A DNA stretch of 32,000 nt, taken from contig NZ_AP019769.1 in assembly GCF_023169545.1 (NCBI RefSeq), positions 636,962 through 668,961 on the forward strand. Reading direction: 5' to 3'. Made by a program: the position numbers and the translations under genes. This DNA is from Nanobdella aerobiophila. Lineage in GTDB: Archaea; Nanobdellota; Nanobdellia; Nanobdellales; Nanobdellaceae. Shown here piece after piece: positions 9,282-29,247 of the stretch. Below the pieces are notes generated by a model. It saw nothing but the letters and a program-made list of their open reading frames with translations. It searched no databases and was not told the DNA's origin. Numbering within the stretch: the first letter of the stretch is position 1; each line of letters begins with the position of its first letter.

Positions 9282-9560
9282 TTATGGATTCTTAAATATA
9301 TACTCTGTTCCATTTTCCATAATAACTATATTAGTCCCATTATAATAACATATTATATTTTCCTCTAAACAGATGTTATAATATGTATTATTTATTATAA
9401 ATGATTCATTTGGATACAATAATAGCTTTACATAAAAATCCTGGCCAATATAATAACCAAAATTGTTTTTATAATAATAATTATTATCAAATTTTGACAA
9501 AAACACTAGAGTAATAAATAATATTAATACTAGATATAATAATATAAATTGAGATTTCAT
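9282..9560 (-). CDS. Small N-terminally anchored, Asn/Tyr-rich, sequon-rich secreted protein (third gene of a three-gene operon)
   Basis: MKSQFILLYLVLILFITLVFL is a hydrophobic anchor or signal. NxS/T sequons include NES, NNT, NGT and NGT. The ATG at 9560 overlaps the upstream stop as ATGA; the track's TTG at 9566 is less likely. Confidence 0.55.
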   Translation of the reverse strand: MKSQFILLYLVLILFITLVFLSKFDNNYYYKNNFGYYIGQDFYVKLLLYPNESFIINNTYYNICLEENIICYYNGTNIVIMENGTEYIFKNP

Positions 9561-9901
9561 TTCCAATAAATATTTACATAATATATTGTGCCATTTAATA
9601 TGAAAAAATCCTCTATGCCTTGATCAGTCTGATTAAGTGGAATATTATAAAAATATGTTATATTATCTATTTCCACATAATAATACGGTAATATACTGCT
9701 AACAATTTGATACAAAGAAGAATTCAACTGAATTGTATTATTCAAATCTTGATAATTTATAGAAATTAATGAAGAATATAGATCATCTTTAATATAACCC
9801 CTTGTATAATATACACTATAAAAGTTTGAGGTTAATAAGAAGTACATAATAATTATTAAAATTACCAATTCTATAAATATTGTAATATTAAATGACCTCA
9901 T
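9557..9901 (-). CDS. Small N-terminally anchored, sequon-rich secreted protein (second gene of operon)
   Basis: MRSFNITIFIELVILIIIMYFLL anchor; sequons NIT, NNT, NSS, NIT, NQT and NGT. ATGA overlaps with both neighbours. Confidence 0.55.
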   Translation of the reverse strand: MRSFNITIFIELVILIIIMYFLLTSNFYSVYYTRGYIKDDLYSSLISINYQDLNNTIQLNSSLYQIVSSILPYYYVEIDNITYFYNIPLNQTDQGIEDFFILNGTIYYVNIYWK

Positions 9902-10278
9902 GATACTAAAACCTCAACCAGGTATAACGAATGATCATAAAAACATACTCGCCTAAATTCTATATAATTATTAGTCACATTTTCCCCATAAAAAAATTTT
10001 TGACCATTACTTAGATTTTCATATATTATTTCATATGGTTGAGAACTCAAGTTATCTATATATAAAGAATTAAAATTGTTTAAAGTTAAATTACATGTAT
10101 TATCTGTTATATAATTAGTCAAATATTCCATTATATTCCTACCGGTCATAAATTGTATATAACTGTTTTGATAATTAAAATTTATTCTATATATAAATGT
10201 CAATTTATCCAGAATTAATAAACTAGCTAAAAATATAGTTAATGATACAATTAGCAATTCAAAAAATCGATCTAGCAT
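9898..10278 (-). CDS. Small N-terminally anchored, sequon-rich secreted protein (first gene of operon)
   Basis: MLDRFFELLIVSLTIFLASLLIL anchor (the FELLIV segment recalls pilin/pseudopilin N-termini); sequons NLT, NLS, NLS and NVT. Confidence 0.55.
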   Translation of the reverse strand: MLDRFFELLIVSLTIFLASLLILDKLTFIYRINFNYQNSYIQFMTGRNIMEYLTNYITDNTCNLTLNNFNSLYIDNLSSQPYEIIYENLSNGQKFFYGENVTNNYIEFRRVCFYDHSLYLVEVLVS

Positions 10279-10896: not shown

Positions 10897-11561
10897 AAGG
10901 TGTAATAAAGGAAAAGAAAATAGAAGCTATATTGGATAGAGAAATAAAGAATGCATTAAGAGGCAAATTAATAAGTAGAGTTCATTATTTAAAAGTTTCA
11001 ATGGGAGATAAAGTCATAATATATTGTGCGAGACCTAGACTAATACTTGGAAGATCGAATGAGAACTTAGCGATGATTAGAGAAATAGCTAAAAAAATAA
11101 TAAATACAAATGACCCAATTATAGAAGTTTTACCAGTTGAGAACCCATTACTAGACTCCGAAATAGTAGCAGATCTAATAGCATCTCAAATAGAAAGATT
11201 TGGAAATAGAGCTGCTAGGAGGATAATACAGAAGATAATGGAAGAAGTCTTAAATGCTGGTGCACTAGGTATAGAAATAAGAATAACAGGAAAGGTAATA
11301 GGAGATAGATCTTCTACAATAAGAGAACAAAAAGGATATATTAAAAAATCAGGAGAATTGAATAAAATAACTGGTAAAAGTATAAGATATGCTAAACTAA
11401 CTTCCGGTACTATAGGAATACAGGTAAGGATATTAAGATCTGGAGAGTTATTACCTGATAGAATAAATATAAAGGATATATCGGAAATAAATCCCGAAGA
11501 ATTAGAAAAAATAGATCCTTCCTTACTAGAAAAATTAGCAAAGGATAATGGAGAACACTGA
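10878..11561 (+). CDS. rps3p: 30S ribosomal protein S3 (uS3)
   Basis: KH-domain region (VIIYCARPRLILGRSNENLAMIREIAKKI), NPLLDSEIVADLIASQIERFGNRAARR and GALGIEIRITGKVIGDRSS...GTIGIQVRI are collinear with archaeal uS3. It overlaps rpl22p by 19 nt. Confidence 0.9.
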   Translation: MAAKNIEGVIKEKKIEAILDREIKNALRGKLISRVHYLKVSMGDKVIIYCARPRLILGRSNENLAMIREIAKKIINTNDPIIEVLPVENPLLDSEIVADLIASQIERFGNRAARRIIQKIMEEVLNAGALGIEIRITGKVIGDRSSTIREQKGYIKKSGELNKITGKSIRYAKLTSGTIGIQVRILRSGELLPDRINIKDISEINPEELEKIDPSLLEKLAKDNGEH

Positions 11562-12468
11562 ATGTATAGCCTTTTATAAACTATTTTTGACGAAGAATAT
11601 AAATACAGATGGACGCCTCGTTTTAAACCTATCTCAGTATCTCTGTTATATATTTAATAATGATATATACAAAATAATGGATAAAATTGAAAAATTTGAT
11701 TTAGACGTCCTCATAGGTCACTTTAAAGATATTAGAGAGAATATCGAACAAATAAAGAGAATAATTAAAGATAAATATCCAGGTGAGGAGGCTGCAGAAG
11801 TATTAGAAACAAAATTAGAAGGATATGGATTAGAAGCTCTCAAAAGATCATTAAATTATGGGAAAAAGGTTTGTTTAACAGATATCCTAAATAAGCATTA
11901 TAATCTAAACCTATATGCACACTCTAATATTGAATTTATAATAGAAAAAGTCTTAGAGAGTGAAAAAACAAATATCTTTATAGAAACAAAAAGAGAAAAT
12001 GAAGAATACATAAGATATATAAAGGTAAACAAGGAACTTTTAGAAGTTTCGACACAAAAAAAATCTTTTAGTTATATAAATAAATATAAATTACCAAGAA
12101 AAGAATTTCTAGATAATGAAACTTCTTTTATTATATCTATATTTTTATACTATAAAGGCATAAAACCTCCCGAGTATATAAATGATATGGCAATAAAATA
12201 TATAAAAGAAAATAATATATCCAAAGCATTGATTTGCATTTATAATAATAAAGATTATAAATCTCTAAAAAATAAAAGAGTCTTAATAGAAGACATCAAT
12301 ACACATATTAAAGTAATAGATATAATAAGAACATATGAAAAGATTATCAATGGTATATATCGTTTTTTGGAGGATAATCTATCAACCATTAAAAAAATAT
12401 CAACAGAGGAAATAGAGGAAAAACAAAAAACAATAGAATATTATCTATATTCAATGCGAGAAGGTTAA
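11548..12468 (+). CDS. Hypothetical protein (306 aa), no family recognised
   Basis: A long ORF with coding-like Lys/Glu/Ile-rich composition. It overlaps the rps3p 3' end by 14 nt and shares a TTAA overlapping stop with convergent apgM. I could not identify any motif. Confidence 0.55.
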   Translation: MENTECIAFYKLFLTKNINTDGRLVLNLSQYLCYIFNNDIYKIMDKIEKFDLDVLIGHFKDIRENIEQIKRIIKDKYPGEEAAEVLETKLEGYGLEALKRSLNYGKKVCLTDILNKHYNLNLYAHSNIEFIIEKVLESEKTNIFIETKRENEEYIRYIKVNKELLEVSTQKKSFSYINKYKLPRKEFLDNETSFIISIFLYYKGIKPPEYINDMAIKYIKENNISKALICIYNNKDYKSLKNKRVLIEDINTHIKVIDIIRTYEKIINGIYRFLEDNLSTIKKISTEEIEEKQKTIEYYLYSMREG

Positions 12469-14501: not shown

Positions 14502-17246
14502 TTATGCCAAGATACATTCGGACCAGCCGCAATCTAAACAGGTAATACATCCACCCTCATGCTTTAATCTTACACTTTTACAAACAGGGCAATTATCTGT
14601 AGATATATTATCATTAAAATTATTATTATTATTTAATTCCAACTTTCTAATTTCTAAATTTATTTTTATATCCCCAATATTCATCTCTGTATACCATTTT
14701 GGTAAATCTATCTTAAAGCTTTTTAATATACTTATAGTTTTATTCTCTATTTTTCCTTCCCTAATTAACCTAAAGTAATCCTTAAATCTCGATTTTGTTG
14801 CTTCCGCAGGTGCATAATATACTTGTACAGACTTTGAACCATCTCTATATATTGTAATTCCCTTACATCCCACTTTATATGCAAATAAATAAGCTAAATA
14901 TATATCTTCAGATGTTGCCCAGCTTGGCATATTTATTGTCTTAGATATTGATGTTGTTATCCATATCTGTGCTACTGCTTGCGCTCTAATATGGTCCCAC
15001 CATGGTAGATCTAATGCTGTAATAAATATCGCCTTTAAATCATCTGGTATTGAATCTATATTATATAAACTACCTCCATTATCAGATATTTGCTTCAAAA
15101 TTTCTTCTTTATATAAACCCTTCTCCTTTAACTGTCTTTCAAATTCTATATCCACATAGAAATAATTACCTGCAGTAACTCTTTTTTCATATACTAAAGA
15201 ATATGCAGGTTCTATACCAGAAGAAGTTTCTACTAGCATAGAAATAGAACCTGTTGGTGCTATCGAAGTAACTTCTACATTTCTTATACCATTTTCCAAT
15301 ATTTCATTCCTTATCTTTTCCCAATCTAGATTCCATAATTCTTTGTGGTAATATCCATCTACTGGCATCTCTCCATCTTTATAAGATGTTTCGTTATATT
15401 TTGGAAATACACCCCTTTCCTTTGCCCTATATATAGATTCTTCCATTGAATAGTATGTTAAATATTCTGTAATTTTCATTAAGAGTCTGTATCCTTCTTC
15501 TGATGAGTAAGGTATTTTTAGAGCAAATAATGCATCAGCTAAACCCATATAACCTAATCCAACTCTTCTTACTGCCTTAGAAGATTCTTCTATCTCTTTT
15601 AATGGATATTTATTCATATCTATTACATTATCCAAAAATCTGTACGACCATCTTATAGTTTCTATATACTTATCCCAATTGAATTCCGCTTTTCCATCTT
15701 TAAATTCTATCATTGCATATAAATTAATTGATCCTAAATTACAAGACTCATATGGATATAAAGGTTGTTCTCCACATGGATTGGTTGCTCTTATTGGACC
15801 TCTATATTTATATTGCATATTTCTTTTATTTATATTATCCATAAATAAACATCCAGGATCTGCTTTTTCCCATGCTACATAAGAAATCTCCGATAATAGT
15901 TGTTTTGGATCTATATAGTTTACTATTACTTCCTTATCAACTTTATCTATATCAAAGCCTTGTTCGTCTGGAAATTTTATATTGTGTTTCCTTAATAATC
16001 TTGGATTTAATAATGGATATGGTTTATTTTCTGCCAGATAATTCCAAAAATTCGAATCAAACATTACAGATATATTAAAATTTTCTAATACTCCTTCTTT
16101 CTCTTTAGCATGTACAAACTTCATAATATCTGGATGCCAAGATTCGATTATCCCCATATTTGCACCTCTCCTTTTGCCACCTTGCTTAACTACATCTGTA
16201 ACTGTATCAATTATTTTCATAAAAGATATTGGACCTGAAGCTATTCCACCTGTGGACCCTACAACATCACCTTCAGGTCTTAATTTAGAATAATTTATTC
16301 CTATACCCCCACCTGACTTAAATATCATTGCCGCATCTGTAGCAGACTTCATAATAGAAGCCATATCATCATCTATATCCAATACAAAACATGCTGATAA
16401 TTGCCCCAATCTTGCACCGGCATTAAATAGTGTAGGTGAATTTGGCATAAATTTCTTAGAAGCCATTAAATCAAAATATTTCAGATAGTTCTCATAGTAT
16501 TGATCAAAATCTCCATTATTTAACCTTTTTATAAATTCTGACCATGAAATCTTCATATGCCCCCTCTCATTTAAATAATCATAAAGATATTTCATTCTTT
16601 CAAGATGATATTTATTCCACTTTAATTTATAAGAATTTCCTTGTTTTTTTAGCCCAATCTCTCCTTCTTCTAGATTCAATTCTTCTTTTGGTTTTATATC
16701 TTGCTTTCCAGATTTGTCATATATCCTTTCATCATACAATATATCTGGTATTACTATCAATGCTGCGACCCTTTCAAACATTTGTTTAGGTCCTTCTAAT
16801 ATTTGTAATTTCTCGTCTTTTAATAGATATCTATTTACCATTAACCTTATTGAATTCAGAGAATATTTCTTCGCTACTTCCTCTTCATAAAAGCTTCCTA
16901 ATAAATTTATTTTTTCTTTTCTTATATTCTCTTTCTCTTTTCTATAAGTTATGTATGCTTTTGCCACTTCATATAAATCAAATTTAACCAGAGTTAATTC
17001 TACAATATCTTGTATTTCTTCAACAGAAGGGATAGAATTTCCATCATATTTATTTTCTATAATATTTAATATATAATCTAATATCTTGTCTAGAGTTTCT
17101 TTATCATATCTTTTTGTCGCTCTCATAGCTTTCTCAATAGCATTATATATTCTTTTTGGATCGAATTCATCTATTCTTCCATCCCTTTTTCTAATCTTTT
17201 TTACCGATATATTTGAAAAATTTTTTTGACTAAAATTGTTTTCCAT
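14502..17246 (-). CDS. nrdJ: Ribonucleoside-triphosphate/diphosphate reductase, class II (adenosylcobalamin-dependent), with an N-terminal ATP-cone and a C-terminal Cys4 zinc ribbon
   Basis: ATP-cone VKKIRKRDGRIDEFDPKRIYNAIEKAM; the active-site block TNPCGEQPLYPYESCNLGSINL; SACFVL; and the C-terminal CPVCKSVRLKHEGGCITCLDCGWSEC. The ORF is contiguous with no intein-like insertion. Confidence 0.9.
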   Translation of the reverse strand: MENNFSQKNFSNISVKKIRKRDGRIDEFDPKRIYNAIEKAMRATKRYDKETLDKILDYILNIIENKYDGNSIPSVEEIQDIVELTLVKFDLYEVAKAYITYRKEKENIRKEKINLLGSFYEEEVAKKYSLNSIRLMVNRYLLKDEKLQILEGPKQMFERVAALIVIPDILYDERIYDKSGKQDIKPKEELNLEEGEIGLKKQGNSYKLKWNKYHLERMKYLYDYLNERGHMKISWSEFIKRLNNGDFDQYYENYLKYFDLMASKKFMPNSPTLFNAGARLGQLSACFVLDIDDDMASIMKSATDAAMIFKSGGGIGINYSKLRPEGDVVGSTGGIASGPISFMKIIDTVTDVVKQGGKRRGANMGIIESWHPDIMKFVHAKEKEGVLENFNISVMFDSNFWNYLAENKPYPLLNPRLLRKHNIKFPDEQGFDIDKVDKEVIVNYIDPKQLLSEISYVAWEKADPGCLFMDNINKRNMQYKYRGPIRATNPCGEQPLYPYESCNLGSINLYAMIEFKDGKAEFNWDKYIETIRWSYRFLDNVIDMNKYPLKEIEESSKAVRRVGLGYMGLADALFALKIPYSSEEGYRLLMKITEYLTYYSMEESIYRAKERGVFPKYNETSYKDGEMPVDGYYHKELWNLDWEKIRNEILENGIRNVEVTSIAPTGSISMLVETSSGIEPAYSLVYEKRVTAGNYFYVDIEFERQLKEKGLYKEEILKQISDNGGSLYNIDSIPDDLKAIFITALDLPWWDHIRAQAVAQIWITTSISKTINMPSWATSEDIYLAYLFAYKVGCKGITIYRDGSKSVQVYYAPAEATKSRFKDYFRLIREGKIENKTISILKSFKIDLPKWYTEMNIGDIKINLEIRKLELNNNNNFNDNISTDNCPVCKSVRLKHEGGCITCLDCGWSECILA

Positions 17247-20289: not shown

Positions 20290-21099
20290 ATGAAAATTGG
20301 TTTGGAGATACATCAGCAGATAAATACTAAAAACAAATTATTCTGTAATTGTAATACAGATCTAAAAGAAGATTATAAATATAGAATTGAAAGAAAATTA
20401 AGAGCTACTTTGAGCGAAACTGGAAAAAAAGATATAGCAGCAGAATATGAAACAATAAAAGATAAAAAATATATATATGAATATGATAAAGATTATGCTT
20501 GTTTAGTAGAATTGGATGAAGAGCCTCCAAAATATATAAATTTAGATGCATTAAAATTTGGAATATTAATTTCCACATATTTTAATATGTACATACCTAG
20601 AGTGTTACAAATTATGAGAAAAATTGTTGTAGACGGATCTAATACATCTGGTTTCCAGAGAACACTATTATTATCATTAGATGGAAAATTAAATTATAAA
20701 AATATAGGAATTGGAACTCTATGTATTGAAGAAGATGCAGCTAGAAAGATAGAAGAAAAAGATGATTATATAATATATAGGCTGGATAGATTAGGAATAC
20801 CATTAATAGAGATATCTACAGATCCCGATATAAAGGATCCAAAAGAAGCAAAAGAAGTAGCCGAATATATTGGATTAATATTAAGGCTATCTGGAAAAGT
20901 AAAAAGGGGTTTAGGAACGATAAGACAAGATCTAAATGTTTCAATAGAAGGAGGGAATAAGGTAGAGATAAAAGGTGTACAGAACTTAAAAATCATTGAT
21001 AAAATTGTAGACCTTGAAGCAAAAAGACAAGAAAAAATTTTAGAACTAATAAATATTGCTAAAGAAAGAGGCATAGAAGGATATGTATTAGAAGAATAG
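20290..21099 (+). CDS. gatE: Glutamyl-tRNA(Gln) amidotransferase subunit E, N-terminal fragment only (269 aa; split gene or truncation)
   Basis: MKIGLEIHQQINTKNKLFCNCNT...CLVELDEEPP...MRKIVVDGSNTSGFQRT...IEEDAARKI...YRLDRLGIPLIEISTDP...KVKRGLGTIRQDLNVSIEGGNKVEIKGVQNL...EAKRQ is collinear with the GatE catalytic cradle. Full-length GatE is about 600+ aa. A TAG at 21097-21099 ends the ORF and the next gene (21132) is unrelated. Confidence 0.85.
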   Translation: MKIGLEIHQQINTKNKLFCNCNTDLKEDYKYRIERKLRATLSETGKKDIAAEYETIKDKKYIYEYDKDYACLVELDEEPPKYINLDALKFGILISTYFNMYIPRVLQIMRKIVVDGSNTSGFQRTLLLSLDGKLNYKNIGIGTLCIEEDAARKIEEKDDYIIYRLDRLGIPLIEISTDPDIKDPKEAKEVAEYIGLILRLSGKVKRGLGTIRQDLNVSIEGGNKVEIKGVQNLKIIDKIVDLEAKRQEKILELINIAKERGIEGYVLEE

Positions 21100-21131: not shown

Positions 21132-21611
21132 ATGAAAAGTCAATTTGGTACTATAATAGTAGAGGTAATATTATTTATAGTAGCTGCTATAGCTGCATAT
21201 ATCTTTGTATCTACTGCTTATACAAATTTAAATGATATAAGTAATGCAGCAACCGCAAACTCAAAATCTTTGGAAAGTCAATTACAAACCTATATAACCA
21301 TAGATTCTTGCGCATATAATAGTTCTACAGATTTATTATATATATATTCAACCAATAGAGGAAATAATGTATTAAATCAAAACTTAACATTATTATTTAT
21401 TAATGGAGTTTTAATAAATAATACAATAATTACCATAGCAAATAGTAATACTGGTACAGCTGCATGGGGTCCTTATGATACTATATTAATAGAATCTAAT
21501 ATAACTCTTAATTCAAATTTTTATAATATAAAGCTAGTTACAGACACTGGTGCTTCTGCAGAAAATATAATATATGTAAATACAACAAGTAATATATGTA
21601 CAATAGAATGA
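21132..21611 (+). CDS. Class III signal peptide protein (type IV pilin / archaellin-fold-like), 159 aa
   Basis: MKSQFG-TIIVEVILFIVAAIAAYIFV has a short charged leader ending in Gly, then a hydrophobic helix. Next comes a sequon-rich beta-type domain (NSS, NLT, NNT, NIT, NTT), and LLYIYSTNRGNNVLNQNLTLLFINGVL resembles archaellin/FlaF/FlaG-type sandwich strands. Confidence 0.6.
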   Translation: MKSQFGTIIVEVILFIVAAIAAYIFVSTAYTNLNDISNAATANSKSLESQLQTYITIDSCAYNSSTDLLYIYSTNRGNNVLNQNLTLLFINGVLINNTIITIANSNTGTAAWGPYDTILIESNITLNSNFYNIKLVTDTGASAENIIYVNTTSNICTIE

Positions 21612-22054
21612 GATCAGACTTAGGATCAATAATAGGAGCAATAATAGGATTTGTTATATTTTCATTATCTTTATTTGCTTTATATTTTATATTAAATAAC
21701 TCTTTTGCATCATATAAATATACTGCAAATTCTATAAATGAAGAAATAAGAAATATTATAGGAGAGAATATTGAATTTTTAGATAATCAAACTACATATA
21801 TAAATCCAAATATTACAATATATAATAATGGAAATAAGGCCTTAGATTTATCTTGTTTTCAATTATATGTAAATGGTTATTATACATCCTTTAATTATAG
21901 CATAAATTATTTATATCCATCAAATTTATTATTACCTGGAGAAAATGCTACCATATATTTTTCAAACAACTATATAGAGAATAATTCTTATAATTATATA
22001 ATATTTATGAGTTGTTATGGAGACAGGTTTCAAACTTTAATATATGTAAGTTGA
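21608..22054 (+). CDS. Class III signal peptide / FlaF-FlaG-like small anchored protein, ~148 aa
   Basis: MRSDLG-SIIGAIIGFVIFSLSLFALYF leader plus helix. ITIYNNGNKALDLSCFQLYVNGYY resembles the archaellin-family beta-sandwich. The ATG at 21608 overlaps the upstream TGA (ATGA); the track's alternative ATG is at 21596. Confidence 0.6.
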   Translation: MRSDLGSIIGAIIGFVIFSLSLFALYFILNNSFASYKYTANSINEEIRNIIGENIEFLDNQTTYINPNITIYNNGNKALDLSCFQLYVNGYYTSFNYSINYLYPSNLLLPGENATIYFSNNYIENNSYNYIIFMSCYGDRFQTLIYVS

Positions 22055-22064
22055 TATATTTAAA

Positions 22065-24032
22065 ATGAGATTACAAGGAGAATCATTAGCGGTAATAATA
22101 TTATTCATTATTGGAGCTATATCAGCTTTTATGCTATATAATATATTAAGACCAAATTATAATTCTTTAACCCCCACTGGAGAATCTATCGCAAATTCAT
22201 TAAGTATTAATTTTCAATTATTAAATTATTATATAACAAATAATACTTTATTTGTATATGTAAAACCATCAGAACCTGTAAATGCATCTCAAGTATTTGC
22301 TATAGTAAATAATAACTCTGCTCTTGTATACCCATATAATTCAAATAATGATATTGTTAATCCAAATCAAAATCAATTATTGTTAATTGTTGATAATTTA
22401 TCTCAAACTTCTTTGGATCAAAATGGCAACTATAAGATAACCATAGGTTTATCAAATGATATAATAGGAATATTTAGTATTAAATATGAATCAAATCCTT
22501 TACAAAAATTCTTTCACCCTATAATAGAAAATAATATTACAAATATAATTAACAATGTAACGACAAACGTAAATAATTATTATGAATTAATATTATATAA
22601 TACGCAATCTATTCCAACTCCAGCACCATTTCAACAAGATATAGCTATATGTAATGGATCTACATCATTAGTACAGAATCCTTATTTTAGTATAGTTGGT
22701 AATGCATCTTCGACAGGTTCAACATCTGCCTCAGTAACATTACCTACAGGTGCTAATATTTATTTATGTAATGGAGGTGATGGAAATGGTGCTTTATCTT
22801 CATATTCCTGGACTGCTCAAGAAACAACACAAAATACTTATGCAAGTTTAGGATATCAAAGTTCTAATGTGTGTTCAGATTCTTCAGGATCTACTGATAT
22901 TGTAGTTGGAGGTGTTGCCATAAATACTAATGAATATGAAAATTTTGTTGGAACAACATTTAATGGTGTAAATTCTTTCTCTTATACATATAATGTAACT
23001 AATACATCTAATGTTGTCATTTCTGTTGCATGTGGATGGTATGCATGCACATCCGTAACATTACCTTCTGGATGCCAAAAGTTATTTGATACCATAGGAG
23101 GAGATACATATGAAACTACGGTAATGGGTGTATGTTATAATCAAACAGCAGGTAGTTATACAGTTTCTGGATCATTAAATGGAGGAGGCTATGTTTCTGT
23201 AGGTATATATGAATTTAGTACAATCCCTCCAAGGTTGAATACATCCCTATCTTATGTAAATAATATTACTTTATATAATGAAATAAATTCTAATGGATCT
23301 AATGTATACTTTTTTTCTAATCCTTCTAATCCTACAGGATCATTATTATATTCTTGGTACGAAGGACAAGAAAATACTAATGGAGTATCATGCGACATTT
23401 GGTGGGTAAATATTAGTAATGGAATACCTGCAAATAGTAATATAACAATATATATGGATATAGGAAATACAAGTACAAATTATTATTCACAATATTATCC
23501 ATATGTAGGTGTATCTTATAATGTTTTAGGAACATTTAATTATGATAATGGTAATTATGTATTTAATTATTATGAAAAATGGGGGAATTTAAGCTCTTTA
23601 CCAGTAGGGTGGAATAATTTAGATTCTGTAAGTGTATCTTTTAGCCAAAATTATACATCTTTTGTTCAAACAAGTTCTAATAACTATTGGTATGGTTTAT
23701 ATTATCCATTATCGAATTCTAATTTACAAAATAGACCTTTGTTATTATTATCATATTATTACTCCTATCCTAACGGAAATACAAACTATTTTGGAATCAC
23801 AAGCCAAACACCAGTAGTCAGTAATACAAATTATTATACATACTATGTAACACAAACATCCCCAGGTTATTATAATAGCTTGTTATATGTTTCTTCTGGA
23901 ACTGCTACAGATACAATAGGATATTTAGTATATGTCCCCGGCAGTATAACTGGTTCTTATTTTAATTTATATTGGACTGCTGTTGCTTCATATCCTCCTA
24001 ATGGAGTTATGCCTGAAGTCTTTATACAATAA
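22065..24032 (+). CDS. Pilin-like N-terminus fused to a large extracellular DUF2341/lectin-like module (655 aa); candidate filament-borne adhesin
   Basis: MRLQG-ESLAVIILFIIGAISAFMLY is class III-like. There are ~180 unique aa, then 472 aa identical to residues of the 25217-29179 protein. These include NVYFFSNPSNPTGSLLYSWYEGQENTNGVSCDIWWVNISNGIPANSNITIYMDIGNTS (the DUF2341-like pattern as I recall it), followed by a ConA/LamG-like Tyr/Asn-rich region. Confidence 0.7.
   Translation: MRLQGESLAVIILFIIGAISAFMLYNILRPNYNSLTPTGESIANSLSINFQLLNYYITNNTLFVYVKPSEPVNASQVFAIVNNNSALVYPYNSNNDIVNPNQNQLLLIVDNLSQTSLDQNGNYKITIGLSNDIIGIFSIKYESNPLQKFFHPIIENNITNIINNVTTNVNNYYELILYNTQSIPTPAPFQQDIAICNGSTSLVQNPYFSIVGNASSTGSTSASVTLPTGANIYLCNGGDGNGALSSYSWTAQETTQNTYASLGYQSSNVCSDSSGSTDIVVGGVAINTNEYENFVGTTFNGVNSFSYTYNVTNTSNVVISVACGWYACTSVTLPSGCQKLFDTIGGDTYETTVMGVCYNQTAGSYTVSGSLNGGGYVSVGIYEFSTIPPRLNTSLSYVNNITLYNEINSNGSNVYFFSNPSNPTGSLLYSWYEGQENTNGVSCDIWWVNISNGIPANSNITIYMDIGNTSTNYYSQYYPYVGVSYNVLGTFNYDNGNYVFNYYEKWGNLSSLPVGWNNLDSVSVSFSQNYTSFVQTSSNNYWYGLYYPLSNSNLQNRPLLLLSYYYSYPNGNTNYFGITSQTPVVSNTNYYTYYVTQTSPGYYNSLLYVSSGTATDTIGYLVYVPGSITGSYFNLYWTAVASYPPNGVMPEVFIQ
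22598..24013 (+). repeat. Copy A of a 1,416-bp perfect direct repeat (in-frame coding)
   Basis: Line-by-line comparison with 25321-26736 (offset 2,723) found no mismatch. The boundaries are set by the first differing bases: 22597 a vs 25320 c, and 24014 t vs 26737 a. Confidence 0.9.
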
Positions 24033-24059
24033 AAATATTTTTATTCATATTTTTATAAT

Positions 24060-24132
24060 GGTCCAGGTAGCCTAGCGGTAAGGCGTCGGGCTGTGGACCC
24101 GAAGATCGGGGGTTCAAATCCCCTCCTGGACC
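24060..24132 (+). tRNA. tRNA-His (anticodon GUG) with genome-encoded G-1
   Basis: G(-1) GTCCAGG TA GCCT AGCGGTA AGGC G TCGGG CTGTGGA CCCGA AGATC GGGGG TTCAAAT CCCCT CCTGGAC C. G-1 lies opposite C73, the tRNA-His hallmark. The 3' end abuts the stop codon of the convergent gene at 24133. Confidence 0.9.
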
Positions 24133-25050
24133 CTAATGCGTTTCCCAGCTAACTGAATATTCATAACCTAATAATTTTTTCATATAATTTTCTATAGAAA
24201 ATTTTTCCTTATTAGTAATCTTACATAGATTATGCGCTAATTTCAAAAATTTAGGATATTGAAAATCTTTATATATTTCTTCCTTTATAATTTCTTTTAA
24301 TTTATTTATATTTATATTATCTAAGCTTTCTAATCTATATATATGATCATTTACTCTGGCTCTAAAATATAATATATTTATGTTCCTATCAAATATATTA
24401 TCATTAATTTTAGACATTAAATACTCTTTCAAATTCTTTTTTACGATATCTGTATAAAATATTTGATTTGGATATATTTTCATTAGGGCAATCATATCTG
24501 ATCTTTCTAAATTATAAATATTCAAATTTAATATTCTTTTAGCTATAGCAATTATTTTTCCGTTATTTATTATATATTTAAAGTTATTCAAATATTCCTC
24601 TTTCCTTTTTTCTATAAGTTCATCGTATATTTTTGTATTAAATTTAGAAAATAATATTGAATCGGATATTATAGATCCATCAAAAAATATATAATTATCA
24701 ATATATTTTGAAGCTAATTTATATTCTAAATTTTTTGCAAATAATGAAGAAACGTCATTTATATCTATTGTATCATTATCCGTCTTAAAAAATATATTTG
24801 GTAATATTTCTATATCATCAATTTTTTCATATATATTATCCGAAACTATTACAGCTCTTGAATATATATAAGAAAAAGGACCTATAATTCCATTTATAAA
24901 TGAAGAATCTATAAAACCATAATTATTCTTATTAATATCTACATCATCTAGATCTAATAATTTTATATTATTTTTTATATAACTATAATCATCAATTTTT
25001 AATTTATTTATCTTTTCTTCTATATTTTTTATTAATTCTCCAGAAATCAT
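24133..25050 (-). CDS. nurA: NurA-domain-like nuclease (tentative), 305 aa
   Basis: GFIDSSF, IFFDGSIISD, KIIAIAKR, ERSDMIALM, ILYFRARVNDHIYRLES and FQYPKFLKLAHNLCKI line up in order with the conserved NurA blocks as I remember them (..DgS.., ..lDGSL.., ..vgv.K.., ..fY.r...v.R.E.., ..YP..L..AH...). This was not verified with an HMM. No herA, mre11 or rad50 is nearby. Confidence 0.55.
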   Translation of the reverse strand: MISGELIKNIEEKINKLKIDDYSYIKNNIKLLDLDDVDINKNNYGFIDSSFINGIIGPFSYIYSRAVIVSDNIYEKIDDIEILPNIFFKTDNDTIDINDVSSLFAKNLEYKLASKYIDNYIFFDGSIISDSILFSKFNTKIYDELIEKRKEEYLNNFKYIINNGKIIAIAKRILNLNIYNLERSDMIALMKIYPNQIFYTDIVKKNLKEYLMSKINDNIFDRNINILYFRARVNDHIYRLESLDNININKLKEIIKEEIYKDFQYPKFLKLAHNLCKITNKEKFSIENYMKKLLGYEYSVSWETH

Positions 25051-25085
25051 AATTATATATAATTATTTAATTATATAAAATATAT

Positions 25086-25144
25086 CCCTGTCTTAGACGA
25101 ACCAATAAGAAAATATGAATATTGGTATCGAAAGACAGGGTACA
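25086..25144 (+). ncRNA. Extended imperfect hairpin followed by ACA; candidate small structured RNA or leader element
   Basis: CCCTGTCTT (25086-25094) pairs with AAGACAGGG (25132-25140). After an internal loop (AGA / A), CGA (25098-25100) pairs with TCG (25128-25130). After a bulged A127, ACCAATA (25101-25107) pairs with TATTGGT (25120-25126) around a 12-nt loop AGAAAATATGAA. T-ACA follows at 25141-25144. This is the most GC-rich stretch of the 166-bp divergent intergenic region. Confidence 0.25.
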
Positions 25145-25216
25145 GAATATAAACAATTTCGTTAATCCAAATTGATAATTAAACTTTTATATTAGCGGAA
25201 ATATTCCTAAGAATTT

Positions 25217-28200
25217 ATGACGATAAAATATAATATCCTTAAATATAGTATATTGTTATTTTCTATTGGATTTATAAGTTTGAGCATAAATTCTCAGAAT
25301 TATTATGCAGTAACATTAACTAATACGCAATCTATTCCAACTCCAGCACCATTTCAACAAGATATAGCTATATGTAATGGATCTACATCATTAGTACAGA
25401 ATCCTTATTTTAGTATAGTTGGTAATGCATCTTCGACAGGTTCAACATCTGCCTCAGTAACATTACCTACAGGTGCTAATATTTATTTATGTAATGGAGG
25501 TGATGGAAATGGTGCTTTATCTTCATATTCCTGGACTGCTCAAGAAACAACACAAAATACTTATGCAAGTTTAGGATATCAAAGTTCTAATGTGTGTTCA
25601 GATTCTTCAGGATCTACTGATATTGTAGTTGGAGGTGTTGCCATAAATACTAATGAATATGAAAATTTTGTTGGAACAACATTTAATGGTGTAAATTCTT
25701 TCTCTTATACATATAATGTAACTAATACATCTAATGTTGTCATTTCTGTTGCATGTGGATGGTATGCATGCACATCCGTAACATTACCTTCTGGATGCCA
25801 AAAGTTATTTGATACCATAGGAGGAGATACATATGAAACTACGGTAATGGGTGTATGTTATAATCAAACAGCAGGTAGTTATACAGTTTCTGGATCATTA
25901 AATGGAGGAGGCTATGTTTCTGTAGGTATATATGAATTTAGTACAATCCCTCCAAGGTTGAATACATCCCTATCTTATGTAAATAATATTACTTTATATA
26001 ATGAAATAAATTCTAATGGATCTAATGTATACTTTTTTTCTAATCCTTCTAATCCTACAGGATCATTATTATATTCTTGGTACGAAGGACAAGAAAATAC
26101 TAATGGAGTATCATGCGACATTTGGTGGGTAAATATTAGTAATGGAATACCTGCAAATAGTAATATAACAATATATATGGATATAGGAAATACAAGTACA
26201 AATTATTATTCACAATATTATCCATATGTAGGTGTATCTTATAATGTTTTAGGAACATTTAATTATGATAATGGTAATTATGTATTTAATTATTATGAAA
26301 AATGGGGGAATTTAAGCTCTTTACCAGTAGGGTGGAATAATTTAGATTCTGTAAGTGTATCTTTTAGCCAAAATTATACATCTTTTGTTCAAACAAGTTC
26401 TAATAACTATTGGTATGGTTTATATTATCCATTATCGAATTCTAATTTACAAAATAGACCTTTGTTATTATTATCATATTATTACTCCTATCCTAACGGA
26501 AATACAAACTATTTTGGAATCACAAGCCAAACACCAGTAGTCAGTAATACAAATTATTATACATACTATGTAACACAAACATCCCCAGGTTATTATAATA
26601 GCTTGTTATATGTTTCTTCTGGAACTGCTACAGATACAATAGGATATTTAGTATATGTCCCCGGCAGTATAACTGGTTCTTATTTTAATTTATATTGGAC
26701 TGCTGTTGCTTCATATCCTCCTAATGGAGTTATGCCATCTATAAATATTTTTTACGCCTCCCCGATATTAAACAGTTTAAATTTCAATCAGAGTATTGTA
26801 AATAGCTATCCTGGACAAAATGCAACAATAGAAGGAACCATATATATAAATAATCCATATAATATTGAAACAAGTATATCATTATCTTGTATTTCTTCGT
26901 CAACTGTTAACTGTTATATACCAAATTATTGTATAACAAACACCAATCAATGTAATTTTAACATAAATGCAAACTCTAATAATATAAGCAATTATTCTAT
27001 AGAAGTTTTAGGAAAAAACCAATTTTCTTCTGTACAAAACAATTTTACTCTAGAGATATTGTCAGCACCTATTAGTATAACAAATATATCTATTAGCCCA
27101 AACACAGAAACAATTGTATCTGGACAATCCCTAACATCAAATATAACAATATATCTAAATAATACATATCAAGGAAATACAATAATACATCTATCTTGTA
27201 ATTCTCCTTCCCCAAATATATATTGTAATATATATCCAAATATAATTACAACAAATAACAATATTACATATTCTGAATTATATATAAACACTTCAGAAAA
27301 TACAACTATGAACAATTACACAATAACAGTTACAGCAAGTAATAGTTATTCTAGTATAAATGGATACGAATATTTAACTGTATATCCATATCCTATTATA
27401 TATATCATATCTCCAAATAATAATACTATAAGTAATTATTATGGACTAAATTTAACATTCTATACAAATTATCCAAATGTAAATATAACAATTAATGGAA
27501 ATACATATAATATAAATGTAACTCCAGGAACAAATACCGTATATTTAAGATATAATAATTCATCAAATGGACTACCTTCATTATATAATATTATACCAAA
27601 TGGAGGAAATATTAGTATAGAATTAAATATAGAATCTCCAACAGGATTAACAAATAATACAGGAATATATAATTACCAACTACCTGCACCAATATTTAAT
27701 GTATCATATACATCTCCAACTCCAAGTAATGGATATATAAGTAATCTATGGTTATTACAAATATATGGAAATGTATATGATAATACAGAAGGTATAGATT
27801 ATTGTAATATACAATTCTTGAATCAATCAAATAATCAATGGGTAACTATATCTAGTTCTACAGAATGTAATGATGTATTTTATAATGGTTTATTACAAGA
27901 ATATTCTAAATATAATGGACAATATTATCAATTATATTATAGAATATATGGATATAATAATTATGGATTATATAATATAACTCCAGAACAAGTTATATAT
28001 TTCTCTCCTAATTCACAAAATATAACTGTAATAAATAATTCATTAACTAATAATCAAATAAATAATATAATACAAGGATCAATAAATAATAATATACCAA
28101 TTGTAGTATTCCCTCAAGGAATATATTTAGTTAATTTAAATATAAATCCACAAGGTAAAAATATAGAATTATTAGGATCTGGAAATGTACTATTTGAGCC

Positions 28201-29179
28201 TGCTAATCCAGGACTACCTGTAATAAATATAGAATCTTCAAATGTAAATATAACTAATATAAATATACAAACTAATTTATTTGCATTAAGATTAACAAAT
28301 GGAACAGTAAATATATATAATTCAAATATAAATTCTGGATTATTTGGTATACAAGTAGAAAATCCATCAATATTAAATATATATAATAGTACAATAAATG
28401 GAAATATAGGAGCAATATATGGAACAGGTACATTCCAGAATTCTACAATAGAGAATTCAAATATACAATCAAGTGTGTGGGGTATATATGATAATAATCC
28501 AGAAAATATTATAATAAATAATAATAATATTAATGCGAATATATTTGGTATAGATTTAGATGGAAATGCGATAAATAATACGATAAATAATAATAATGTT
28601 GATAGTAATATATTTGGTATAAAATTAAATAATGGATATAATAATTATATAGAAAATAATAATATTGATAGTAATATATTTGGTATAGATTTAGGATCAG
28701 GAAATAATTATATATTAAATGATTTAATAAAAGTAGGATCTGTATTTGGATTATATGAAACAAATAATAATTATATTAATAATGTTACAGCATATGGAGG
28801 AATATTCGGACTTAATATATATGGTAATGCATCAAATATATATGATTATAATTCACAGTTAGGTGTAGCTATAAATAATAATGGAACTATAAATAATTTA
28901 ACTGTATCAACAGGAACTATTGATATAAATTATATAGGTTCAGGATTTATTAATAATGCAAATAGTTTTGCAAGTTCAATAATAAATAATACTATACAAT
29001 ATAACTTTGCTTCTGGAATATTATTAATAGGGTCATTAAATGCTAATATTACATTTACAAATATACCTACAGGTAATTATATAATAGAAAAGATAGTAGG
29101 AGGTTCAGGAAATATAATATCTACAAATAATACATTTAGTCCATCCGGTTTTGGTATTTATGCATTGTATTATTCATAA
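25217..29179 (+). CDS. Giant secreted surface protein (1,320 aa): Sec-type signal, DUF2341/lectin-like module, two Ig-like Cys-containing modules, and a parallel beta-helix (PbH1/NosD-like) C-terminal region
   Basis: MTIKYNILKYSILLFSIGFISLSINS-QNYY is a Sec-like signal. Residues ~36-507 are identical to the 22065-24032 protein. Two ~100-aa modules share the pattern PGQ.xT...I.(I/L)NN.Y...I.LSC.S.S...C...NY(S/T)I.V. There are eight or more 22-23-aa repeats of type NNNI(D/N)SNIFGI.L....NN.I. It carries dozens of NxS/T sequons and has no C-terminal TM anchor. Confidence 0.8.
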   Translation: MTIKYNILKYSILLFSIGFISLSINSQNYYAVTLTNTQSIPTPAPFQQDIAICNGSTSLVQNPYFSIVGNASSTGSTSASVTLPTGANIYLCNGGDGNGALSSYSWTAQETTQNTYASLGYQSSNVCSDSSGSTDIVVGGVAINTNEYENFVGTTFNGVNSFSYTYNVTNTSNVVISVACGWYACTSVTLPSGCQKLFDTIGGDTYETTVMGVCYNQTAGSYTVSGSLNGGGYVSVGIYEFSTIPPRLNTSLSYVNNITLYNEINSNGSNVYFFSNPSNPTGSLLYSWYEGQENTNGVSCDIWWVNISNGIPANSNITIYMDIGNTSTNYYSQYYPYVGVSYNVLGTFNYDNGNYVFNYYEKWGNLSSLPVGWNNLDSVSVSFSQNYTSFVQTSSNNYWYGLYYPLSNSNLQNRPLLLLSYYYSYPNGNTNYFGITSQTPVVSNTNYYTYYVTQTSPGYYNSLLYVSSGTATDTIGYLVYVPGSITGSYFNLYWTAVASYPPNGVMPSINIFYASPILNSLNFNQSIVNSYPGQNATIEGTIYINNPYNIETSISLSCISSSTVNCYIPNYCITNTNQCNFNINANSNNISNYSIEVLGKNQFSSVQNNFTLEILSAPISITNISISPNTETIVSGQSLTSNITIYLNNTYQGNTIIHLSCNSPSPNIYCNIYPNIITTNNNITYSELYINTSENTTMNNYTITVTASNSYSSINGYEYLTVYPYPIIYIISPNNNTISNYYGLNLTFYTNYPNVNITINGNTYNINVTPGTNTVYLRYNNSSNGLPSLYNIIPNGGNISIELNIESPTGLTNNTGIYNYQLPAPIFNVSYTSPTPSNGYISNLWLLQIYGNVYDNTEGIDYCNIQFLNQSNNQWVTISSSTECNDVFYNGLLQEYSKYNGQYYQLYYRIYGYNNYGLYNITPEQVIYFSPNSQNITVINNSLTNNQINNIIQGSINNNIPIVVFPQGIYLVNLNINPQGKNIELLGSGNVLFEPANPGLPVINIESSNVNITNINIQTNLFALRLTNGTVNIYNSNINSGLFGIQVENPSILNIYNSTINGNIGAIYGTGTFQNSTIENSNIQSSVWGIYDNNPENIIINNNNINANIFGIDLDGNAINNTINNNNVDSNIFGIKLNNGYNNYIENNNIDSNIFGIDLGSGNNYILNDLIKVGSVFGLYETNNNYINNVTAYGGIFGLNIYGNASNIYDYNSQLGVAINNNGTINNLTVSTGTIDINYIGSGFINNANSFASSIINNTIQYNFASGILLIGSLNANITFTNIPTGNYIIEKIVGGSGNIISTNNTFSPSGFGIYALYYS
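25321..26736 (+). repeat. Copy B of the 1,416-bp perfect direct repeat (in-frame coding)
   Basis: Identical to 22598-24013. Both the main-frame proteins and the shadow ORFs (26355-26540 vs 23632-23817) are identical. Confidence 0.9.
28319..28862 (+). repeat. Tandem 66-69-nt (22-23-aa) parallel beta-helix repeats inside the giant surface-protein gene (approximate bounds)
   Basis: Successive units are NSNINSGLFGIQVENPSILNIY / NSTINGNIGAIYGTGTFQNSTIE / NSNIQSSVWGIYDNNPENIIIN / NNNINANIFGIDLDGNAINNTI / NNNNVDSNIFGIKLNNGYNNYIE / NNNIDSNIFGIDLGSGNNYILN / DLIKVGSVFGLYETNNNYINN / VTAYGGIFGLNIYGNASNIYD. At DNA level, aatatatttggtata recurs at about 28549, 28608 and 28673. Confidence 0.7.
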
Positions 29180-29247
29180 TTTTTTAATTTCATTATTGAT
29201 ATTATTAATATAAGTTTTAAATTCAAACTTTATAAGTATAAATATAT

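Follow-up and report, generated by a model that had tools for sequence, protein, structure and literature searches.

We describe here three adjacent genes of the archaeon Nanobdella aerobiophila MJ1, MJ1_0772, MJ1_0773 and MJ1_0774 (genes 1, 2 and 3 below). They lie in a 32,000-nucleotide (nt) stretch of the 668,961-bp contig NZ_AP019769.1 (positions 636,962 to 668,961), which is called the window and to which all coordinates refer. Genes 1 and 2 are related to the archaellum proteins ArlF and ArlG (FlaF and FlaG), and gene 3 joins an ArlF-like domain to a large extracellular head that recurs in a second gene further downstream. The genes and the tRNA gene that bounds the operon on its 3' side are as follows:

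21132–21611, + strand: gene 1 (MJ1_0772), 159 amino acids (aa), monotopic and ArlF-like, built of an N-terminal membrane helix and a beta-sandwich
21608–22054, + strand: gene 2 (MJ1_0773), 148 aa, monotopic protein of ArlG/ArlF fold
22065–24032, + strand: gene 3 (100% identity to MJ1_0774), 655 aa, with an ArlF-like domain at the N-terminus and a DUF2341-type head joined to it
24061–24133, + strand: tRNA-His(GTG), found by ARAGORN and Rfam (71.8 bits), 28 nt past the stop codon of gene 3

The initial annotation of this DNA described a tightly coupled three-gene operon whose products all start with a hydrophobic helix, and both points hold. The start of gene 2 was placed at MRSDLG, the majority start among its orthologues (the mechanical open reading frame, ORF, begins 12 nt upstream). 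With this start, its ATG at 21608 overlaps the TGA stop codon of gene 1 (21609–21611) in the sequence ATGA. The spacer between genes 2 and 3 is 10 nt. Each product has a single hydrophobic segment and this segment is N-terminal, Kyte–Doolittle 19-residue windows above 1.6 being found essentially only there. As was also stated earlier, genes for ArlH/I/J or PilB/C are missing from the window: when all ORFs of 80 aa or more were scanned with Pfam, none matched these proteins (T2SSE and T2SSF families).

A genome scan with the gene 1 alignment recovered 14 loci, all of them in Nanobdellales and including Nanoclepta minutus at 42% identity. The trio is present in these 14 loci at 40–80% identity and in identical order, which argues that the three ORFs are genuine genes and not chance ORFs. 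Carriers of the trio are Nanobdella, YN1, Nanopusillus, Nanobsidianus Nst1 and Nanoclepta. In YN1, N. acidilobi, Nst1 and a Nanopusillaceae metagenome-assembled genome (MAG) the whole order of GatE N-terminal half, gene 1, gene 2, gene 3, tRNA-His, NurA (on the opposite strand) and tRNA-Ser is kept, with tRNA-His in the same position. In our window tRNA-His and the convergent NurA ORF (24133–25050) meet without an intergenic spacer, the 3' end of the former and the final base of the latter both lying at 24133. Nanoclepta-type trios encode proteins of 153, 146 and 463 aa, and their genes overlap by 4 nt and 1 nt. The trio was not recovered from N. equitans in any search. Possession of arl genes or archaella has been reported for Nanoclepta, Nanopusillus, YN1 and Nanobdella (PMC11104419, PMC11420986, PMC10117864), and N. 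equitans is reported to be non-archaellated and to have no arl genes. Thus, in this small sample of lineages, the distribution of the trio tracks that of archaella.

The earlier proposal that genes 1 and 2 encode FlaF/FlaG-type beta-sandwich proteins is supported by profile matches of the first and by the fold of the second. Gene 1 scores above the gathering threshold of Pfam Arch_flagellin (PF01917; 36.4 versus 29.5 bits). Its best NCBIfam match is ArlF (E value 1.3e-14, 54.5 bits, equivalog cut-off 110) and the second is ArlG (E 1.5e-9), the models used being NF052590 and NF052591. Ten orthologues of gene 1 are 69–80% identical to it and the Nanoclepta-type homologues (loci L008 and L010) 42–43%. 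The Joint Genome Institute (JGI) labels homologues of gene 1 'archaellum component FlaF (FlaF/FlaG family)' and places the homologues of gene 2 in the FlaF/FlaG family as well. Gene 2 itself matches the NCBIfam ArlF model with an E value of 6.5e-4. Its AlphaFold model (mean predicted local distance difference test, pLDDT, 80.6) consists of a helix at residues 3–51 and a beta-sandwich. When this model was compared with the Protein Data Bank (PDB) by Foldseek, the top matches were FlaF (4p94, E 5.9e-5) and FlaG (5tuh) of Sulfolobus acidocaldarius and the FlaF/FlaG entries 6pbk and 5tug. The match to 5tuh had a template modelling (TM) score of 0.64 and a root mean square deviation (rmsd) of 3.2, and archaellins were matched as well. 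The families of genes 1 and 2 align with each other by hhalign (probability 88.6%, E 2.6e-6), which indicates that the two genes are paralogous. Profile and sequence searches of the PDB gave nothing significant with gene 1, gene 2, or the N-domain, insert and head of gene 3 that are described below.

Genes 1 and 2 are thus of a known kind and have been partly noted before, in the JGI labels and by Kato et al. (bioRxiv 10.1101/2023.10.27.564410). Those authors termed MJ1_0772 and MJ1_0773 'archaellin-like', detected no signal peptide in them and presented an archaellin-like structure model for gene 1. The archaellum genes that they list for the genome are ArlB/H/I/J only. According to Makarova et al. 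(PMC4858521), every archaellated archaeon has one FlaF and one FlaG, including the nanoarchaeote Nst1, and Nst1 holds the same trio. The order of an F-like gene followed by a G-like gene agrees with the euryarchaeal order flaF-flaG (PMC4425475).

The N-termini of the three products had been read as class III signal peptides, i.e. leaders that end in Gly and are removed by a prepilin peptidase. Our results do not support this reading. TIGR02537 (arch_flag_Nterm) and Pfam Pilin_N gave no match at E≤1 for any of genes 1–3, while two fusion proteins that served as positive controls of like composition from the same genome, MJ1_0547 (P0064) and P0098, pass TIGR02537 with 25 bits against a cut-off of 20. 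These two proteins begin MRSISPIIATILIIVITVAIAG, a start of the form M[KR]SISPII..., match UpsA at E values of about 1e-16 and bear the same DUF2341-like head as gene 3, which makes them true pilin-adhesin fusions. The name that one of the two has in NCBI, 'RNA-binding protein', is probably a misannotation. Position −2 of the proposed cleavage sites is F, L or Q in genes 1–3 and not K or R. The Gly that was taken as the cleavage site of gene 3 turned out to be specific to this strain: gene 3-type N-termini read M[RK][LI]QS in 34 of 36 cases and MKLQN in one. In gene 1, the Gly is replaced by Ser in Nanoclepta (N-terminus MRGFSTII). Moreover, FGTIIVE of gene 1 aligns with IGTLIVF, residues 16–22 of a PDB archaellin chain, and not with the end of a leader. 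We infer that it corresponds to the interior of the mature archaellin helix. There is also a precedent in FlaF, which Banerjee et al. (PMC4425475) describe as monotopic, with an archaellin domain that is incomplete and with no class III signal. A FlaFind-style pattern was negative for genes 1–3 and for 36 gene 3 orthologues; it also missed true pilin-type proteins and carries little weight alone. Taken together, these comparisons suggest that the N-termini of genes 1–3 are not class III signal peptides and that they are probably left uncleaved.

The domain map of gene 3 was obtained from a predicted structure model (pLDDT 72.6), BLAST coverage and hhalign:

22074–22484, + strand: N-terminal module with a membrane helix (aa 4–31) and a beta-sandwich (aa 50–140)
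22491–22571, + strand: Asn/Thr-rich, disordered linker (aa 143–169; pLDDT 31–43), of which both length and sequence vary among orthologues
22575–24014, + strand: extracellular head (aa 171–650) with a DUF2341-type jelly roll (aa 171–204 and 395–650)
aa 205–394 of gene 3: nested insert of about 190 aa, beta-rich, with conserved Cys (pLDDT >90)

In the model, aa 50–140 have pLDDT values of 85–92, aa 209–385 are very confident and beta-rich, and aa 395–655 are of moderate confidence. The N-domain family aligns with the gene 1 family by hhalign over 110 columns (probability 90.6%, E 1.3e-6), and the domain is on this evidence a paralogue of gene 1. Its relation to gene 2 is undetectable outside the helix, and there is no direct match to the ArlF, ArlG or PF01917 hidden Markov models (HMMs). 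When the whole model was compared with the PDB by Foldseek, its N-terminal part matched archaellin 9eq7_A with probability 1.0; the rest of the output was uninformative because a multidomain model confounds the search. A search of 1.84 billion representatives with the N-domain profile gave 11 matches. Besides the orthologues, these comprise three stand-alone proteins of 134–138 aa and the fusions P0143 and P0145, both of which have canonical DUF2341 (86.7 and 129.9 bits, the 86.7 bits on PF10102 being those of P0145). The loci examined for the two multidomain matches are Nanoclepta-type trios.

More specifically, the gene 3 family aligns with the Nanoclepta orthologue P0145 by hhalign (96.9%, E 2e-10) collinearly across the N-domain and the DUF2341 core. 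The alignment leaves the Cys-containing insert of about 190 aa as a gap, i.e. the insert is nested in the jelly roll. Typical orthologues in Nanopusillaceae are about 520 aa long and insert-free. A search for DUF2341 had been recommended in the initial annotation. MJ1_0774 itself does not match PF10102 at E≤1, but its orthologues P0017, P0034 and P0113 exceed the threshold of this model and the alignment with P0145 is collinear. The insert and the head of the MJ1 protein have no Pfam or NCBIfam match. Among viral proteins, the head finds its best fold match in Sulfolobales Beppu rod-shaped virus 1, whose DUF2341 protein gave an E value of 1.5e-8; minor-tail and tip proteins of phages come next. 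The likeness to such receptor-binding proteins is in the predicted head fold only (10–25% identity), and the context of gene 3 is cellular. Gene 3 therefore does combine an N-terminus of the same type as in genes 1 and 2 with a large extracellular region, as was claimed, and consists of an ArlF-like N-domain, a linker and a DUF2341-type head. The label 'pilin-adhesin fusion' that it had been given is better suited to other genes, e.g. MJ1_0547 and P0098. Together with P0110 these belong to the UpsA-like pilin-DUF2341 fusions found in Nanopusillaceae and Nanobdella, which share with gene 3 the head module and the arrangement of a stalk of 170–190 aa followed by the head. They differ in beginning with the pilin motif given above, passing TIGR02537 and matching UpsA, whereas the N-domain of gene 3 is ArlF-like and unrelated to theirs by profile search.

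The head of gene 3 is also present in a second gene of the window, within a long direct repeat that the initial annotation had overlooked:

22598–24013, + strand: repeat copy A (1,416-bp direct repeat), inside gene 3
25321–26736, + strand: repeat copy B, inside MJ1_0776
25217–29179, + strand: MJ1_0776, 1320 aa, with a hydrophobic N-terminal leader, the same head, more beta-rich domains and a beta-helix

Base-by-base comparison at an offset of 2723 found no mismatch over the 1,416 bp (repeat family D1). Residues 179–650 of gene 3 consequently recur near the N-terminus of MJ1_0776, 2.7 kb downstream, and BLASTP aligns the two proteins with 97.6% identity over 490 aa. An assembly artefact was considered as the source of this identity and rejected: at each of the three boundaries that were recovered, independent Logan short-read contigs stop about 30 nt within the repeat (L001 at 22627, whereas L026 covers 23984–25350), as is expected of a k-mer assembly at a true two-copy repeat. 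The copies flank tRNA-His and NurA. MJ1_0776 was described by Kato et al. (bioRxiv 10.1101/2023.10.27.564410) as pectin-lyase-like, and 66-nt periodic repeats in its 3' part (28241–28705) are consistent with the coils of a beta-helix. The interval between NurA and tRNA-Ser that it occupies (25051–29246 here) is gene-free in YN1, N. acidilobi, Nst1 and the Nanopusillaceae MAG, so that MJ1_0776 is an insertion specific to N. aerobiophila.

The head of gene 3 is a mosaic. The insert of gene 3 is closer to that of the YN1 paralogue YN1_6470 (60%) than to that of the orthologue YN1_3250 (45%), and the DUF2341 core is nearest to the orthologue YN1_3250 (74%). The same head is found on pilin-type stalks and on stalkless proteins, MJ1_0776 among them. 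These sequence relationships indicate that the head is a shuffled cassette that has recently been copied or gene-converted between gene 3 and MJ1_0776 without a base change. Recombination between the two repeat copies would remove NurA and leave a fusion in which the entire MJ1_0776 follows gene 3's ArlF-like stalk.

In Sulfolobus, ArlF/ArlG-type proteins are the stator that fixes the rotating archaellum motor to the S-layer. Given the homology, folds, domain map, operon structure, synteny and phyletic pattern found here, we lean, with slightly more confidence than doubt, towards the view that the trio is an ArlF/ArlG-type periplasmic archaellum complex that has, in this order, gained a third subunit which is ArlF-like and bears a lectin-type head. 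Genes 1 and 2 would then be the ArlF- and ArlG-type proteins of a dispersed archaellum gene set, both of them uncleaved single-pass membrane proteins with the beta-sandwich between membrane and S-layer. Gene 3 would be a third, lineage-specific paralogue whose ArlF-like sandwich may dock onto the ArlF/ArlG assembly and thus form a complex with it. On the flexible linker, a DUF2341 jelly roll resembling the concanavalin/receptor-binding type would project outward as a head for glycan binding. The likeliest target of the head would be the cell's own heavily N-glycosylated S-layer, so that the motor is anchored; alternatively it may bind the host surface, and a role of gene 3 in host attachment is possible. 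N. aerobiophila swims by archaella and should need an ArlF and an ArlG, yet only ArlB/H/I/J are annotated in it. Genes 1 and 2 share with ArlF and ArlG of S. acidocaldarius (PDB 4P94, 4ZBH, 5TUG, 5TUH, 6PBK) a length of about 150 aa, monotopic topology, an N-terminal helix, a beta-sandwich and the lack of a class III signal. In addition, the genes are adjacent and coupled, are linked to that family by HMM (gene 1) and by fold (gene 2), and occur, in the small sample here, only in archaellated lineages. The differences are that the trio scores below the equivalog cut-offs, that it is not beside arlH/I/J and that it includes a third paralogue with a 480-aa extracellular head.

Several observations weigh against the stator view. 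The ArlF and ArlG scores are far below the NCBIfam equivalog cut-offs (54 and 38 versus 110 bits), and the sequence signal of gene 2 is weak. Our search for ArlF and ArlG covered the genes of the window, and a second pair may exist elsewhere in the genome. No arl gene is adjacent to the trio in any of the loci examined, and arlH/I/J were found neither in the window nor in the 10-kb flanks of the related loci examined; arl genes in this lineage have been reported as unclustered. Nanoclepta-type loci hold, 5.5 kb downstream of the trio and separated from it by unrelated genes, a FlaI-like ATPase (519 aa, 371 bits versus a cut-off of 550) and a half-size platform gene for a T2SSF protein of 279 aa (the pair at 16894–19289 in L008 and 15583–17978 in L009). 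These two may belong to the archaellum or to a pilus system. The part of gene 3 in the motor is something that we infer, and the canonical arl operons in the literature cited here (PMC4858521, PMC4425475 among it) have no third, DUF2341-bearing gene. In other archaea, proteins with DUF2341 sit in pilus loci (PMC4858521 among the sources). Finally, the head behaves as a fast-evolving recognition cassette with many paralogues, mosaic similarity and recent conversion, and host recognition fits such evolution better than a structural anchor does.

This last point leads to the first alternative, that the products form a membrane-anchored surface complex independent of any filament or motor, in which ArlF/G-like sandwiches are stalks for a lectin head used in host recognition or in an attachment organelle. 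We regard this as unlikely, though the most probable of the alternatives. It agrees with the presence of the head in MJ1_0776, next to a pectin-lyase-like region, and in many paralogues, with the mosaic similarity and recent gene conversion of the head, with its fold that is like those of viral receptor-binding proteins, and with the lack of motor genes next to the trio. It leaves unexplained why the occurrence of the trio parallels that of archaella and why no search recovered it from N. equitans, a species that is host-attached too. Besides, a swimming cell requires ArlF and ArlG, and other candidates for these have not been reported in the literature.

The second alternative is the original one: three prepilins cleaved by a prepilin peptidase, with pilus ATPase and platform encoded elsewhere, would build a separate filament in which gene 3 is a tip or minor-pilin adhesin for the host. 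All three products do resemble pilins in topology, with a sandwich that comes after the helix. DUF2341 proteins of Epd-type pili (arCOG03508; Methanococcus maripaludis MMJJ_08210) are proposed PilY1-like tip adhesins, and one is required for pilus-dependent transformation; they share with gene 3 a predicted extracellular DUF2341 jelly roll and the association with the type IV filament superfamily. Extra pilus ATPases without assigned pilins are known from Nanoarchaeota (PMC4858521), a FlaI-like ATPase with a T2SSF gene lies near the Nanoclepta-type trios as described above, and a second, rough 15-nm appendage has been reported on the cells. Epd-type loci differ in that they contain pilins, EppA and ATPase/TadC genes, their DUF2341 proteins are published without mention of an ArlF-like N-terminal domain, and the DUF2341 domain of gene 3 is too diverged for Pfam and has the nested 190-aa insert. 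It counts against prepilins that genes 1–3 lack any match to pilin or class III HMMs while pilin-DUF2341 fusions of the same genome do match, that the −2 residue is non-canonical and the Gly unconserved, that gene 1 aligns best with ArlF, a family documented as uncleaved (PMC4425475), and that Kato et al. (bioRxiv 10.1101/2023.10.27.564410) saw no signal peptide in MJ1_0772 and MJ1_0773. In our opinion these points make a separate pilus doubtful.

The least probable explanation, which we hardly expect to be correct, is that gene 3 is sporadically built into the archaellum filament via its N-terminal helix and that its 500-aa head forms thorn-like densities: thorn-like decorations and an unusual corrugated proximal segment have been reported on N. 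aerobiophila archaella and the N-terminal part of gene 3 resembles an archaellin structure (9eq7_A), but the model of the archaellin/pilin N-terminal domain gave no match to its N-terminus, there is a low-confidence linker between helix and sandwich, and filament-borne heads are more likely to be those of pilin-type DUF2341 fusions, e.g. MJ1_0547.

The remainder of the window has features typical of Nanoarchaeota, namely a G+C content of about 25%, scattered ribosomal-protein genes and a free-standing N-terminal half of GatE. The latter (269 aa, 20290–21099) spans profile positions 11–276 of 630, and all related loci likewise keep it as a gene of its own (271 aa), which means that the gene is split. 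The large subunit of ribonucleotide reductase (14502–17246, − strand; 914 aa) has no intein, and its orthologues in YN1 (1649 aa), N. acidilobi (1307 aa) and Nst1 (1299 aa) carry an intein and LAGLIDADG domains. A MoxR-type AAA+ ATPase gene followed by one for a von Willebrand factor A protein is located at 550–2641. Amid the ribosomal-protein genes there are three small overlapping ORFs (94, 114 and 126 aa; 9282–10278, − strand) and a 306-aa ORF (11548–12468, + strand), all without a Pfam match.

N. aerobiophila is among the few cultivated DPANN archaea, and its free cells swim with archaella. If MJ1_0772 and MJ1_0773 are an ArlF/ArlG pair, the motor would have its full set of core genes in a genome of about 0.67 Mb. 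In the literature cited here, neither the architecture of gene 3 nor its conservation throughout the order appears to have been described, and the same holds for the live exchange of the cassette; MJ1_0774 is absent from the main text of the preprint of Kato et al. (bioRxiv 10.1101/2023.10.27.564410). The exact 1.4-kb cassette common to gene 3 and MJ1_0776 shows present-day exchange of surface-protein heads in a tiny genome and bears on host specificity. A bolder proposal, which we put forward only tentatively and consider rather improbable as a whole, is that the stator of Nanobdellales has been rebuilt as a three-part complex with an exchangeable glycan-binding head, swapped by ongoing gene conversion among the anchor, pilin-type stalks and secreted pectin-lyase-like proteins, or else that the trio builds the 15-nm appendage or the thorns of the archaellum. 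In the former case, an obligate ectosymbiont would possess a cassette system that links its swimming apparatus to recognition of the host or of the S-layer.

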